From IMG/VR virus record IMGVR_UViG_2925877141_000003: DNA of 8,112 bases; one strand, 5' to 3'. This DNA is from a virus (taxonomy: Duplodnaviria > Heunggongvirae > Uroviricota > Caudoviricetes). A model generated the notes under the pieces. That model was not told where the DNA came from. It saw nothing but the letters and a program-made list of their open reading frames with translations, and searched no databases. How positions within the stretch are numbered: position 1 is the stretch's first letter; each line of letters begins with the position of its first letter. Made by a program: the position numbers and the translations under genes. Shown here piece by piece: positions 1,420-6,963 of the stretch.

Positions 1420-1874
1420 TACGCCTCCTGCTTGTCGCGCAGCAGCTGGAACTCGCAGCTCTGCGGAATAGTCAGGTGGCAGCCAATATTCATCGCCCAG
1501 GCTTCAACCTTACACAGGAAGACATACATCTCTCCGGCATCAAGATCGGAGGTATGGCGTAACGACTGGATAGTGGTGATTTCACCGGTTACGACATCAA
1601 CCAGGTCCTTGGTTTCATAACCGAGGTATGTGTGTTTGAGAGCTTCTTTTACCCATGCTGCGGTAGCGAACGATTTCCCCCTGCTGATAAGGTATTCACT
1701 GATTTCGCTGTACCACATGTGGCTGAGTGCATTCTGGGAAAGACTGCGTTTCTCACGCCACGGTTTAAGCACCATGCGAAAGCATTTTCCGTCCTCCAGA
1801 TAAGGCTGGATCTGCTGGCCGATAGCGGTGAAGTTGCCGCGATGTAATTTGATGCCATCTTGTGGTAGGTTCAC
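1419..1874 (-). CDS. ybcN: YbcN (DLP12-type prophage protein, reported DNA base-flipping protein)
   Basis: 151-aa translation [45 protein letters not shown]...[12 protein letters not shown] matches my recollection of K-12 YbcN. GTG start (complement of 1872-1874) is preceded by GGAGGTGAAGC. Confidence 0.9.
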
Positions 1875-2179
1875 GCTTCACCTCCGCAGAGGTCAAACGT
1901 TGGATGCAAAAAATCGCAGGTGCATTTCTGCATCTGTGAAGGGAGAAGAGAGTTTAGATTGTATGTGCGCATAAACGTCCCCGTTTAGCGCAACCCCACC
2001 GCCGGGTGTTCAGGCCGACAGTAACTATATTATTCCCTACTGTTTTTTAAAAATCAAAGGCCTTTATACGTCACACGAGAGCAAATATTTCCGAAGAAGA
2101 AACCTTTCGCCTTGAAAGGATAAAGAGTTCATTTCATAAATTGAAATATTCAATAAGAATATTGCAAAAAATGAAATTA

Positions 2180-2208
2180 TTTACTAGCGAGTCTATCTAA
2201 CTGATAAT
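2180..2208 (+). promoter_or_regulatory. Candidate sigma70 promoter for the downstream nuclease-like gene: TTTACT, 17-nt spacer, GATAAT
   Basis: -35-like TTTACT at 2180-2185 and -10 GATAAT at 2203-2208, about 90 nt upstream of the ATG at 2301. Pattern match only. Confidence 0.25.
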
Positions 2209-2300
2209 TATGAAGATTGTAAGCGGTAGCAATCACCCGCATACACATTGAACAGGATTTAATACAAAACGTCTTAAATTGTCCGTAAGGAATAGCACGA

Positions 2301-3803
2301 ATGACTCAAACTCCACTATTACTTGCAATCATATTTTTATTGGTTGTTCTTGTTCTATATATAGCTGCAATCAAACGCATCAAAAAAATACAATTAGAAT
2401 TAAGTGATAGCAATCAAAAAAATGAAGAATACAAATCTCGCTTTGCAGATTATTTTAATGTGGAAGAGGAATGTAAGAAGCTTATTGAGAAAACAGAGCA
2501 AGAATGCTCCATTATAAAAGAAGAGTCCCAAAAAGTAAAAGAAAATGCCAATAATGAACTAACAAACACCATTGAAAAAATGGATGGTATCAATAAACAA
2601 ATCCAAGAACTAAGAAGAACTTATAAAGAGAAGAAAGAAATATATGATAAGCTAGTAAAGCAAATTTCTATTTATTCAGAAGATGTTGAACTAGCCGAAC
2701 TAGGATTTTACGAACCTCATTTTAATTTTGAAGATTCAGAGCAATTTAAAAACAAAATAAAATCCATCAGGGATGAACAGAAATTAATGCTGCGGGATAA
2801 AACCCACTCTGGTGCAGTATATTGCACAACCCAATGGACTGTTGAAGGCTCTCGAGCAGAGGGTAAAAAAATGACAGACAGAAATATTAGGCTAACTACT
2901 AGAGCATTTAATAATGAATGTGATGCTGCAATTAGTAATTGCACGTGGAAAAATATCACTAAAATGGAAGAACGCATCACAAAGGCATTTGAGGCCATAA
3001 ATAAACTAAACGAGCAAAATCACATATATATAAATACTAAATACCTTAATAAAAAACTTGAGGAGTTGTGGCTTACCCATGAATATCGTGAGCAAAAACA
3101 GAAAGAAAAAGAAGAACAGGCAGAAATAAGGGCACAAATGAGAGAGGAGGAGCGTGCACAACGAGAAATAGAAAAGGCCATGCAAGACGCAGAGGCAGAA
3201 GAGCGCCGTTATAAAAAAGCAATTGAAGCTGCAAGAAAGGAAATGGAAAAAGTTACTGGTGACATGAAGCAGCGCCTCGAAAATCGCATTGCCGAACTAG
3301 AACAGAGTTTGTCGCAGGCTGAATCAAAGCATCAAAGAGCATTATCCATGGCACAACAAACCAAACAAGGTCATGTTTATATTATTTCGAACATAGGTTC
3401 TTTTGGGGAGAATGTTTATAAAATAGGCATGACACGACGTCTTGATCCACAAGACCGTGTAAATGAGCTTGGTGATGCATCTGTTCCTTTTATTTTTGAT
3501 GTGCATGCCATGATTTATTCGGAGGACGCTCCATCATTAGAAAAAAAACTACATGATGTCTTCGATAAAAAGAGAGTCAATCTTGTAAATCGTAGAAAAG
3601 AGTTTTTCTATGTTACTCTGGATGAGATCAAAGAAGCTGTTAAAAAACACTCTGATTCAGAAATTGAATTTATTGAGACAGCAGTCGCAAAAGACTTTAA
3701 TGAGTCATTGGCTATTCGTAATCATGAAAATAAAAAAATCGACAACAGCAACTCATCAATCATACTTGAGCGAAAAATCACAGAGTTTGCAGATGCAATT
3801 TAA
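2301..3803 (+). CDS. Membrane-anchored coiled-coil protein with C-terminal GIY-YIG/T5orf172 nuclease-like domain (DUF4041 or SNIPE-like architecture); candidate anti-phage effector
   Basis: 500-aa ORF with SD-like AAGGA at 2287-2291. N-terminal hydrophobic helix LLLAIIFLLVVLVLYIAAI, then about 300 residues of K/E/Q/R-rich coiled coil. C-terminal GHVYIISNIGSFGENVYKIGMTRRLDPQDRVNELGD (from nt 3369) fits the GIY-x(10)-YKIG-x(3)-R...E pattern. Confidence 0.85.
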   Translation: MTQTPLLLAIIFLLVVLVLYIAAIKRIKKIQLELSDSNQKNEEYKSRFADYFNVEEECKKLIEKTEQECSIIKEESQKVKENANNELTNTIEKMDGINKQIQELRRTYKEKKEIYDKLVKQISIYSEDVELAELGFYEPHFNFEDSEQFKNKIKSIRDEQKLMLRDKTHSGAVYCTTQWTVEGSRAEGKKMTDRNIRLTTRAFNNECDAAISNCTWKNITKMEERITKAFEAINKLNEQNHIYINTKYLNKKLEELWLTHEYREQKQKEKEEQAEIRAQMREEERAQREIEKAMQDAEAEERRYKKAIEAARKEMEKVTGDMKQRLENRIAELEQSLSQAESKHQRALSMAQQTKQGHVYIISNIGSFGENVYKIGMTRRLDPQDRVNELGDASVPFIFDVHAMIYSEDAPSLEKKLHDVFDKKRVNLVNRRKEFFYVTLDEIKEAVKKHSDSEIEFIETAVAKDFNESLAIRNHENKKIDNSNSSIILERKITEFADAI

Positions 3804-3828
3804 TTAATTTGTAGTTAAAACAAAACAG

Positions 3829-3858
3829 GCATCGTTGATACTTTTTGGTCAGCGATGC
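3829..3858 (+). terminator. Hairpin downstream of the nuclease-like gene (10-bp stem, 10-nt loop), possible terminator or RNA-stability element
   Basis: 3829-3838 gcatcgttga pairs with 3849-3858 tcagcgatgc (one G-U pair). Only TT follows, so the U-tract is weak. Confidence 0.3.
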
Positions 3859-4037
3859 TTACATCCTCCTCTCGGAAAACGTCGATTACTTGCAACTTTA
3901 TTTTTAATTTCCAGCAGCAAGTACTAATGCACAACCTCCATTACATACTGATTTGAACATCACGAATCCCGCCTCTAGCTTAAACTACAAAGTATTACCA
4001 GAATCAATCTTATTCATAATTAAACTCCACAGACCAA

Positions 4038-4101
4038 TTGAACATATGAATCCATATTGATATGCTACATCACAATGTGTTAACCATTAGATAACACATT
4101 G
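4038..4101 (+). promoter_or_regulatory. Candidate promoter (TTGAAC, 17-nt spacer, TATGCT) followed by a perfect 10-bp inverted repeat (candidate operator) upstream of the HD gene
   Basis: TTGAAC at 4038-4043 and TATGCT at 4061-4066. Inverted repeat caatgtgtta (4074-4083), spacer ccattaga, taacacattg (4092-4101), about 60 nt upstream of the ATG at 4163. SD-like AAGGAAA at 4151-4157. Confidence 0.3.
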
Positions 4102-4162
4102 AAACTATAAACATCATTACTATTTAAATTTCGTATTATAACTACAGCAAAAGGAAAGCCTC

Positions 4163-5710
4163 ATGACAAACAAAAACAAACTTGAGAACTTTGAAGACTT
4201 ACTTCTGGGGAAGTTTTTAGATCCCATACATGGAGTGATTCGAATAACTAAGCTAGAAAAAAAGATAATTGACCATCCTTTATTCCAACGACTACGAGAT
4301 ATCAGGCAGAACACGTTTCTATATAAAGTATTTCCTTCTGCAATGCACTCTCGCTTTGAACACTCTGTCGGTGTAATGCATTTATCGTATGAGATTTTGA
4401 AAAATATAAATTTGAATGCATTAATTTATGACCGAAAAAATATGGGCATTGATCTATATTTAGATATAAAAAAAATGCCTTCAAGTCTTATACAGGAGTT
4501 ACGTATTGCAGCATTGTTACACGATGTTGGGCATGGCCCACTTGCCCACCAATTCGATAGTTTTGCAATATCCGTAAAAGATTTCAAAGAAAAATGCAAA
4601 ACTGAAGGAAATAAACAATACGATAAGATTATATCTTTAAGTGATAATGACAAGTTAACCCACGAACAAGTATCATGTATTTTTATTAAAGAAATTATTG
4701 AAGAATTAAAAAATGAAGCCCAAGATAAATCAAATGACGACGATGTCTATAAAGAAAACATAGCGGCTATTAATCCAGAAAGCATTATAAAAATTGTTGA
4801 TAAAAGATATGATTTTAAAAATAACATTGAGGGAGTAAATGTATATCCTTTATTAGGTTCAATCATATCATCTTCACCTATAGATGCGGACAGAATGGAC
4901 TACCTACTTAGAGATAGCTACTTCTCCGGCGTTAAATATGGGATTTATGATTATGGACGATTATTAATGTCATTTATTCCTGTGAAAGTTGAAAATAGTG
5001 TTTACCTGGCATATAAAGAAAGTGGTATGGATTCAATACTAGAATTTGCCAATGCAAGAAGTGGGCTTTATAGTCAAGTTTATTTTCATAAGACCAATCG
5101 TGCACTATCTGCGATGCTTAACAAAGCGTGTTCTAGAAAAAAAACTGATGATGTTGTCTCTTTAAAATCTAAAAACACTCTCATTGAGTCCATCAAACAC
5201 TTTTATCGTGAAAACCCAGACAAAACGTTTTTAGAAAACACTCTTAAAAACACATTAGATAAAAATTCTCAAGCTATAATTCAAGATATTGTTGATAGAA
5301 ATGTTTGGAAAAAAATATATGAAAAAAAACACACGTTTTCTAATGTTAACATTTCCGACAACAGATACAAAGAATATAAACAAAATATATCTAAGAAAAT
5401 CAACAAAATCATTGAGGATAATTTAAAAGGAGATGAATGGGTTCTTGATTTTCAGATTGAAGATAACTTTAAAGATATCGATACAAGTCAAGCTAAAATA
5501 ATAAAAAAAGAAACAGGCGGCAAGTATACAATAAATGATTTATGTAAGTATAACGATGTACTTCAACCCTATCACTATGTTAAATTCTTTATTCGAGTTT
5601 TTGTTTCTAAGACAACTCAACTCCAAAACACCGAAGAAATTAATGTGTTAATAAAAAAAATAGATAAATGTCTTAATGATGAGATTGAACATATTAAAAA
5701 AGACAAGTAG
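4163..5710 (+). CDS. HD-domain phosphohydrolase of the SAMHD1-like dNTP triphosphohydrolase family (COG1078-type); candidate dNTP-depleting defence protein
   Basis: 515-aa ORF. N-terminus DPIHGVIRITKLEKKIIDHPLFQRLRDIRQ, then HSRFEHSVGVMHL, LLHDVGHGPLAHQFD and PIDADRMDYLLRDSYFSGV, the characteristic His / His-Asp / Asp metal-ligand motifs of this family. The C-terminal roughly 200 residues are K/N-rich and unassigned. Confidence 0.88.
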   Translation: MTNKNKLENFEDLLLGKFLDPIHGVIRITKLEKKIIDHPLFQRLRDIRQNTFLYKVFPSAMHSRFEHSVGVMHLSYEILKNINLNALIYDRKNMGIDLYLDIKKMPSSLIQELRIAALLHDVGHGPLAHQFDSFAISVKDFKEKCKTEGNKQYDKIISLSDNDKLTHEQVSCIFIKEIIEELKNEAQDKSNDDDVYKENIAAINPESIIKIVDKRYDFKNNIEGVNVYPLLGSIISSSPIDADRMDYLLRDSYFSGVKYGIYDYGRLLMSFIPVKVENSVYLAYKESGMDSILEFANARSGLYSQVYFHKTNRALSAMLNKACSRKKTDDVVSLKSKNTLIESIKHFYRENPDKTFLENTLKNTLDKNSQAIIQDIVDRNVWKKIYEKKHTFSNVNISDNRYKEYKQNISKKINKIIEDNLKGDEWVLDFQIEDNFKDIDTSQAKIIKKETGGKYTINDLCKYNDVLQPYHYVKFFIRVFVSKTTQLQNTEEINVLIKKIDKCLNDEIEHIKKDK

Positions 5711-5752
5711 AGCCCCCCTGATGTTTTAAAAAAACATCTTAACTATAAACAA

Positions 5753-5787
5753 AACGCCATTAGTTACTCTCAGTAACTAGTGGCGTT
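5753..5787. terminator. Near-perfect 16-bp stem hairpin (3-nt loop) downstream of the HD gene; T-rich tract lies on the minus-strand side, possibly bidirectional
   Basis: 5753-5768 aacgccattagttact pairs with 5772-5787 agtaactagtggcgtt (one G-U pair), loop ctc. On the minus strand it is followed by TTTTGTTTATAG. Confidence 0.4.
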
Positions 5788-5823
5788 CATGTCTAATGAT
5801 TGATCCGCAGTATTATCTGGTGC

Positions 5824-5852
5824 TTGTCAATCAGATTTATTCATTGTTTAAT
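5824..5852 (+). promoter_or_regulatory. Candidate sigma70 promoter in the cargo-side intergenic region, reading toward bet'-exo-int: TTGTCA, 17-nt spacer, TTTAAT
   Basis: TTGTCA at 5824-5829 and TTTAAT at 5847-5852. A 7-bp inverted repeat tgattga (5798-5804) / tcaatca (5827-5833) overlaps the -35. Pattern match only. Confidence 0.25.
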
Positions 5853-6058
5853 ACTACCTCAGCATCCTGTTATACGCTACACAACCATTATTACTCATCC
5901 TTTGAGTTACATTTAATATCTGAAATATTTTTGTGTTAATCAATGTGTGGATATATTCCCTACTAATTCACTAATTCATACAGCACCAAGCTAGAAACAT
6001 TGTTATAGTTCCCCGCACAAAGCAAACCATTAAATTTGATTGGATGTTTTCGAGATAA

Positions 6059-6286
6059 CCATCAAATCAAGTAATAACTAATCTCCCATATAACGATGAA
6101 ACCATGCAGGAGATTAACACTCTGCTGATTGCCCTGGACAAAACATGGGATGACGACTTATTGCCGCTCTGTTCCCAGATATTTCGCCGCGACATTCGCG
6201 CATCGTCAGAACTGACACAGGCCGAAGCAGTGAAAGCTCTTGGATTCCTGAAACAGAAAGCCTCTGAACAGAAGGTGGCTGCATGA
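6059..6286 (+). pseudogene. bet: 3' remnant of the lambda bet (Red-beta) gene; only the last ~60 codons remain, 5' part replaced by cargo
   Basis: Translation ...[62 protein letters not shown] matches the Bet C-terminus as I recall it. Stop TGA (6284-6286) overlaps the exo ATG (ATGA) as in lambda. The frame is open from the stop at 6056-6058; recognisable homology starts near 6095. Confidence 0.8.
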
Positions 6287-6963
6287 CACCGGACATTATC
6301 CTGCAGCGTACCGGGATCGACATGAGAGCTGTCGAACAGGGGGATGATGCGTGGCACAAATTACGGCTCGGCGTCATCACCGCTTCAGAAGTTCACAATG
6401 TGATAGCAAAACCCCGCTCCGGAAAGAAATGGCCTGACATGAAAATGTCCTACTTCCACACCCTGCTGGCTGAGGTTTGCACCGGTGTGGCTCCGGAAGT
6501 TAACGCTAAGGCGCTGGCCTGGGGAAAACAGTACGAGAACGACGCCAGAGCCCTGTTTGAGTTTACTTCCGGCGTTAATGTTACTGAATCCCCGATCATC
6601 TATCGCGACGAAAGTATGCGTACCGCCTGCTCTCCCGATGGTTTATGCAGTGACGGCAATGGCCTTGAGCTGAAATGCCCGTTTACCTCCCGGGATTTCA
6701 TGAAGTTCCGGCTCGGTGGTTTCGAGGCCATAAAGTCGGCTTACATGGCCCAGGTGCAGTACAGCATGTGGGTGACGCGAAAAGATGCCTGGTACTTTGC
6801 CAACTATGACCCGCGTATGAAGCGTGAAGGCCTGCATTATGTCGTGGTTGAGCGGGATGAAAAGTACATGGCGAGTTTTGACGAGATGGTGCCGGAGTTC
6901 ATCGAAAAAATGGACGAGGCACTGGCTGAAATTGGTTTTGTATTTGGGGAGCAATGGCGATGA
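6283..6963 (+). CDS. exo: Lambda-type exonuclease (Red-alpha, Exo), full length (226 aa)
   Basis: Translation [54 protein letters not shown]...[15 protein letters not shown] is essentially lambda Exo end to end. Confidence 0.95.

Follow-up and report, generated by a model that had tools for sequence, protein, structure and literature searches.

The question posed by this locus is whether the gene at 2301..3803 (+) of the window, by which we mean the whole 8,112-nucleotide stretch of DNA analyzed here, encodes a dedicated anti-phage nuclease and, if so, whether that nuclease functions alone or together with the gene that follows it. The open reading frame, identified from the ORF list, PADLOC and the RefSeq annotation (WP_001516217.1), is intact, with an ATG start and 500 codons plus a stop, and a putative Shine-Dalgarno element, AAGGA, can be read directly in the sequence at 2287..2291 (+), 9 nt 5' of the start codon. 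From the translation, a preliminary description had proposed the name SNIPE, and the proposal turns out to be correct: the PADLOC PD-Lambda-1 model (PDLC03976) matches with E=5e-198, residues 1-484 aligning with positions 1-484 of the 491 in the profile, and a tblastn search of phage genomes retrieved a CDS annotated as 'PD-lambda-1' in Escherichia phage PhiR26_1 (PV340555.1; XSB42081.1), the product of which has the same length of 500 aa and is identical to the window protein in 494 residues (98.8%). The protein also matches phrog_1847 (E=9e-196); a search of NCBIfam yielded no family over its cut-off.

The N-terminal region contains a single predicted transmembrane (TM) helix, as the preliminary description had proposed. 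Residues 5-24 (PLLLAIIFLLVVLVLYIAAI; 2313..2372, +) are the sole strongly hydrophobic segment of the protein, with a Kyte-Doolittle 19-residue mean of 3.37 compared to a maximum of 0.87 past residue 30, and, by their map positions, the deltaTM primers oDS47/48 of the published study take out precisely codons 5-24. The hydrophobic segment is directly followed by KRIKK, which fits a single-pass anchor with the N terminus outside and the C terminus inside the membrane, the topology demonstrated experimentally for SNIPE with PhoA-LacZ (PMC13190303). As for other elements of the DNA, an Rfam search of the whole window found no RNA family, the small ORFs in two intergenic gaps showed nothing notable, and a repeat search of the window returned short two-copy matches only, including a 22-nt repeat (86%) of the TM-coding stretch at 3885-3906; we judge these repeats to be chance matches in AT-rich DNA.

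With respect to the remainder of the protein, the sequence between the anchor and the C-terminal domain had been described as a coiled coil of about 300 residues. The high charge is indeed there (39% K/R/D/E in residues 25-356), but instead of one continuous coiled coil, the AlphaFold2 (AF2) model, built from 51 homologues with 49-56% identity (mean pLDDT 78), displays two long helical stalks, residues 5-133 and 246-355, around a globular domain, so that the order of elements is helix, globular domain, helix and alpha/beta domain. The first stalk is a continuous helix that includes the TM segment, and its charged portion (residues ~25-133; 2373..2699, +; 43% charged) is a variable 'adapter' region; this N-terminal helix region is poorly conserved in the SNIPE family (PMC13190303). 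The globular domain (residues ~143-245; 2727..3035, +) is modeled with pLDDT >90, a level that holds across residues 151-260, and includes the match to Pfam DUF4041 (PF13250) at residues 198-252 (nt 2892-3056; E=1.2e-19; 55 of the 56 profile positions covered), in agreement with the earlier proposal that DUF4041 is present. The second stalk, a long linker (residues ~246-355; 3036..3365, +), consists of the helices 246-317 and 321-355 and keeps L253, W257, E264, K305, I308 and T319, all of which were mutated in the published study (PMC13190303). In the first stalk, a profile of the homologues aligns residues 32-115 (window ~2394-2645) with the coiled coil of the P22 tail needle gp26 at a non-significant E of 0.35-0.41. 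A resemblance to gp26 has been noted for the N-terminal regions of some SNIPE homologues (PMC13190303); in the window protein, sequence comparison does not separate it from the similarity that coiled coils share in general.

The C-terminal alpha/beta domain (residues 357-483 in the model) contains the GIY-YIG-type nuclease (residues 357-449; 3369..3647, +), which is detected by Pfam T5orf172 (PF10544; residues 357-449, E=6.9e-17) and by MUG113 (residues 373-449, E=7e-19); these matches and that of DUF4041 are all well over the curated cut-offs. In the AF2 model, this domain adopts the GIY-YIG fold, with a three-stranded sheet flanked by helices, a tyrosine on each of strands 1 and 2, a conserved arginine, a glutamate in the helix that follows strand 3 and an asparagine further downstream. 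Comparison with GIY-YIG folds and with the PF13250 and PF10544 profiles had been suggested as a check on the assignment as a DUF4041 plus GIY-YIG/T5orf172 protein; the model and both profile matches, each significant, bear the assignment out. The catalytic glutamate of GIY-YIG nucleases canonically resides in the helix after the third strand, and E414 (3540..3542, +) sits precisely there, within APSLEKKLH. Invariant positions in the alignment of 51 homologues are Y360, K374, G376, R379, R380, R386, E389, H402, E414, N427 and N430; R379, R380 and R386 are the candidates for the catalytic arginine. The preliminary description had taken the glutamate of NELGD for the downstream Glu of the motif; this residue, E389, is invariant as well, but the experimentally validated catalytic glutamate is E414, to which the primers oDS92/93 that create the E414A mutation map. 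A search of the PDB with the 51-homologue profile returned nothing significant (best E=0.12), so that sequence comparison revealed no experimental structure for the family.

The correspondence with the published system extends to fine detail. A functional selection for resistance to lambda yielded PD-lambda-1 from E. coli ECOR26 (Vassallo et al., 2022, Nat Microbiol, PMC9519451), in which it is encoded on contig QOXL01000020 (protein RCP76574.1; CDS 49060-50562; active clone 48998-50844), and the gene was renamed SNIPE with the characterization of its mechanism (Saxton et al., Nature 2026, PMC13190303). The domain positions given by Vassallo et al. for PD-lambda-1 (197-252, 357-448 and 373-449; PMC9519451) agree with the Pfam positions in the window protein, and by primer mapping, the published deltaDUF4041 removes residues 197-252. 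The 27 primers taken from the supplement of the SNIPE paper (PMC13190303) all match perfectly, both in PhiR26_1 and in the allele common in E. coli (WP_000195116.1), save the two bases that introduce E414A. On the window copy, the primers show scattered mismatches, with just the 2 designed ones at the E414 codon (oDS92/93). The match to PhiR26_1 spans 1,962 nt without gaps at 97.6% identity and includes the 62 nt 5' of SNIPE that are present in the active published clone; within the CDS, 28 of 1503 nt differ.

These nucleotide differences result in six substitutions (window residue first, PhiR26_1 allele second): Q77L and K120R in the first charged helix, and I480S, L489P, I493T and T494P in the C-terminal tail (3738..3782, +), where the model has low pLDDT (residues 484-500). 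No substitution falls within the TM helix, the segment matched by Pfam DUF4041 or the nuclease core, and the nine residues mutated in the SNIPE paper, namely E223, N250, L253, W257, E264, K305, I308, T319 and E414, are all kept. No publication was retrieved in a literature search with the accession WP_001516217. Every defining feature of SNIPE that can be examined in sequence is present and, by these features, the gene at 2301-3803 is an allele of this already known system; the discovery has been published, on a protein that shares 98.8% identity with that of the window, and what the window provides is a natural allele with six substitutions. As a separate observation, the SNIPE alleles linked to the HD-domain gene discussed below differ from the common allele in tail residues 480-494, within the last 21 residues.

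We therefore consider it very probable that the window gene is a single-gene, direct (non-abortive) anti-phage SNIPE, carried as cargo by lambdoid E. coli prophages, and infer that this allele is expressed and active. For the ECOR26 allele, protection is direct and non-abortive; the protein is distributed uniformly in the membrane, with its N terminus in the periplasm and its main body in the cytoplasm, and without the TM helix, it is toxic, the chromosome then being bound and cut (PMC13190303). This toxicity requires E414 and depends partly on DUF4041, which promotes DNA binding, and the E414A substitution removes both defense and toxicity (PMC13190303). Adsorption is unaffected, the appearance of injected lambda genomes is reduced about 30-fold, and injected 32P-labelled lambda DNA is fragmented in an E414-dependent manner, with induced resident prophages untouched (PMC13190303). 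Defense against lambda-like phages depends largely on ManYZ, and a weaker, ManYZ-independent defense spans most siphoviruses; DUF4041, which combines DNA binding with contact to the tape measure protein, can be altered by substitutions that strengthen tape-measure binding and boost the ManYZ-independent defense (PMC13190303). The preliminary proposal of a membrane-tethered nuclease that acts on incoming phage DNA is thus supported by the experiments on anchoring, on E414A and on cleavage of lambda DNA at injection, performed with the 98.8%-identical protein (PMC13190303).

By extension, the membrane placement of the window protein would keep the nuclease off the chromosome, as published for the 98.8%-identical protein. 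The window allele can be predicted to associate with the ManYZ mannose permease, lambda's genome entry route; upon infection, its DUF4041 would bind DNA and contact the phage tape measure protein, and the GIY-YIG nuclease, with the catalytic E414, would thereby be positioned to cut phage DNA during injection. The expected outcome is that siphoviruses are blocked, with plasmid transformation, resident prophages and the host chromosome spared.

The genomic context is that of a decayed DLP12-like prophage adjoining a tRNA-Arg gene, of which the window is a part; three complete E. coli chromosomes, those of 2 HS-C, EcPNK006 and M23917, contain the entire window at 100% identity. In the orientation of the window, the gene order is quuD, ylcG, rusA, ybcO, ninE, ybcN, a small ORF, SNIPE, the HD gene, a bet remnant, exo and intD. 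SNIPE occupies the slot that, in lambdoid prophages, has the replication genes (P/ren) on one side and ninB (ybcN) on the other. PhiR26_1 and the majority of E. coli carriers have it beside ren, at the end of the replication genes that faces ybcN (ninB), and relatives at times have extra cargo genes between SNIPE and ybcN. The GC content is 0.34 in the SNIPE cassette and 0.31 in the HD cassette, compared to 0.49 in the flanks. A hypothetical ORF of 33 codons at 1871-1972 (-), overlapping the start of ybcN, is part of the annotation of each relative examined. Furthermore, a 75-nt stretch (1904-1978) is present twice in prophages with extra cargo between ybcN and SNIPE (loci L004 and L011) and may represent a recombination boundary of the cargo slot.

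SNIPE is encoded in 131 of 5426 complete E. coli genomes; 109 of these 131 genes are 95-99% identical to the window copy at the DNA level, the rows sampled from this band all being 97.9-98.1% identical, and the exact protein sequence of the window was found on 210 contigs. In several complete E. coli genomes, the gene is split by IS1 (two hits) or IS5 (one hit), which indicates that it is dispensable, and in strain P276M (locus L004, 6485-7501), a copy 95% identical with gaps is annotated as a shortened CDS of 1017 nt, about 338 aa. Besides being retained, the gene has been lost on repeated occasions.

Given this context, the possibility has to be weighed that the window allele is silent, inactive or endowed with a shifted phage specificity, either because it resides in a prophage relic or because the six substitutions alter recognition. 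The decay of the prophage is extensive: rusA (607-969, -) has a premature stop at 679-681, after codon 96 of 120 (DDAQVVD, stop, RVVKMP; a RefSeq pseudogene), and of bet, the C-terminal ~60 codons alone are left (6086-6286, +). Homology with intact prophages containing the HD cassette stops at about position 6095 which, together with the bet remnant, indicates that a deletion, running from ren into bet, took everything between the HD cassette and bet, leaving exo and intD; in intact relatives, the lost segment holds at least replication and immunity genes. With these genes gone from a decayed prophage, expression of SNIPE is not guaranteed; moreover, a consensus promoter scan found no strong or convincing promoter just 5' of SNIPE, and in a promoter and terminator scan of positions 1800-6300, the number of sites was no higher than in shuffled sequence. 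The existence of IS-disrupted copies in other strains and the clustering of four of the six substitutions at residues 480-494 point in the same direction, as does the finding that single substitutions shift SNIPE specificity by orders of magnitude, although these map to DUF4041 and the following helix (PMC13190303). Nevertheless, the ORF is full length, the identical protein recurs on those 210 contigs and the entire window in the three chromosomes, the substitutions leave the functional residues named in the published work untouched, and the upstream region, including the 62 nt of the active clone, aligns with PhiR26_1 without a gap. The tail, in addition, appears to be tolerant since a C-terminal GFP fusion of SNIPE is still active (PMC13190303). 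On balance, we regard a silent or altered allele as unlikely, and the survival of an intact SNIPE within a heavily decayed prophage is consistent with a benefit to the host.

The second alternative concerns the neighboring cargo gene (4163..5710, +), which encodes a predicted SAMHD1/EF1143-like HD-domain phosphohydrolase of 515 aa (Pfam HD, E=8e-7). In a phmmer search of the PDB, this protein matches Aquifex 2hek (5e-30), Enterococcus EF1143 (2o6i; 1e-26) and SAMHD1 (about 4e-26 over residues 19-430), and retains complete H...HD...D motifs (RFEH67, H120-D121 and D241-x-D243 in D241ADRMD). The PADLOC dGTPase (Dgt-like) profile gives a weak local match (E=8.9e-4, 16.7 bits), and with TIGR01353, the score is 23.4 bits, the cut-off being 152; thus, the protein appears to be related to Dgt-type dGTPases at the superfamily level without being a clear member.

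Several observations could be taken to mean that SNIPE and the HD phosphohydrolase form one two-gene system in which one component is needed for, or regulates, the other. The HD gene was detected in 21 complete E. coli genomes and, in all 21, lies directly 3' of SNIPE on the same strand; in the window, both genes belong to one low-GC island, and a terminator-like site looked for between them was not found. However, the published clone that confers defense holds SNIPE alone, starting 62 nt upstream of the gene and ending 282 nt past its stop codon (PMC9519451), compared to the 359-nt gap that separates the two window genes and places the HD start codon 360 nt past the SNIPE stop. Moreover, 110 of the 131 SNIPE-positive E. 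coli genomes are devoid of the HD gene, ren coming directly after SNIPE in these, and the HD homologues of Enterobacter and Serratia (75-76% identity) occur alone in small insertions, with no SNIPE nearby. An obligate two-gene system is rejected on these three grounds, namely the clone with SNIPE alone, the carriers that lack HD and the stand-alone homologues; we consider a single system very unlikely and conclude that the HD gene is independent cargo, outside the SNIPE system.

The SAMHD1-like HD gene with which SNIPE is recurrently paired is itself a reasonable candidate for a defense gene, plausibly an uncharacterized one that depletes nucleotides. It is tempting to go further and envisage the HD enzyme as an uncharacterized dNTPase directed against phages, deliberately combined with SNIPE into an island of two defense layers and possibly coupled to it functionally, a scenario that we find unlikely. 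Should it hold, entering DNA would first be cut by SNIPE, and the few genomes that escape would be arrested by nucleotide depletion; coupling could consist, for example, in the HD enzyme working on nucleotides released by SNIPE. In a lesser variant of this line of thought, the variant C-terminal tail of the window SNIPE could retune its phage range.

Finally, the notion that the window protein is a structural or SMC-like coiled coil, a 'chromosome segregation ATPase' or a T5orf172 DNA-binding regulator rather than a defense nuclease, encouraged by homologue names such as 'chromosome segregation ATPase', 'ParA' and 'SbcCD ATPase subunit' and by a weak SMC-related NCBIfam match that is due to the charged helices (20.7 bits against a cut-off of 300), is hardly credible and is rejected: neither Pfam nor NCBIfam detects an ATPase domain (Walker A/B heads) in SNIPE, and nuclease-dependent defense has been shown directly, by E414A and by 32P-DNA cleavage, in the 98.8%-identical protein (PMC13190303). 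Given that no ATPase domain is detectable, the older names are misannotations. Other names attached to homologues include 'helicase', 'putative regulatory protein' and 'DUF4041 domain-containing protein', and 'SNIPE associated domain-containing protein' is used by the newest RefSeq records only.

The closest known relative of the window gene, and the basis for its interpretation as SNIPE, is the allele of the ECOR26 prophage PhiR26_1, with which it shares the TM helix 5-24, DUF4041 (197/198-252), the GIY-YIG domain (357-449) and E414, along with its slot in a lambdoid prophage, flanked by the replication genes and ybcN/ninB and with the same relative orientation. The two differ in their surroundings: the window prophage is a decayed DLP12-like remnant at tRNA-Arg, whereas PhiR26_1 is an inducible phage, and the window SNIPE is followed by the 2.2-kb HD-phosphohydrolase cassette in the place of ren in PhiR26_1. 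Among candidate systems, PDC-S57 of PADLOC has a T5orf172-type domain in common with SNIPE (residues 354-461, E=2.8e-18), but the match is confined to the nuclease domain, with no counterpart of DUF4041 or the TM segment.

Other GIY-YIG nucleases, such as Slx1/HIGLE, I-TevI and the N-terminal domain of UvrC, are just 12-13% identical to SNIPE. Unlike Slx1/HIGLE, SNIPE has no RING/zinc finger and no Slx4 partner; the motif of the T5orf172 subfamily to which it belongs is KIGxTxR...R, in contrast to the classic GIY...YIG of other GIY-YIG nucleases; and the SNIPE nuclease is tethered to the membrane and gated by location, whereas the others are gated by DNA structure or sequence. What makes SNIPE biologically notable is that self and non-self are told from each other by the place and time at which the DNA is encountered, that is, the injection site, and not by sequence or modification. 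In acting at the inner membrane while the genome is injected or shortly thereafter, SNIPE resembles Zorya, Kiwa and the superinfection-exclusion proteins of prophages (PMC13190303). No sequence relationship with these systems was detected, the PADLOC matches being PD-Lambda-1 and PDC-S57 only, and unlike all of them, SNIPE is one polypeptide that carries its own nuclease.
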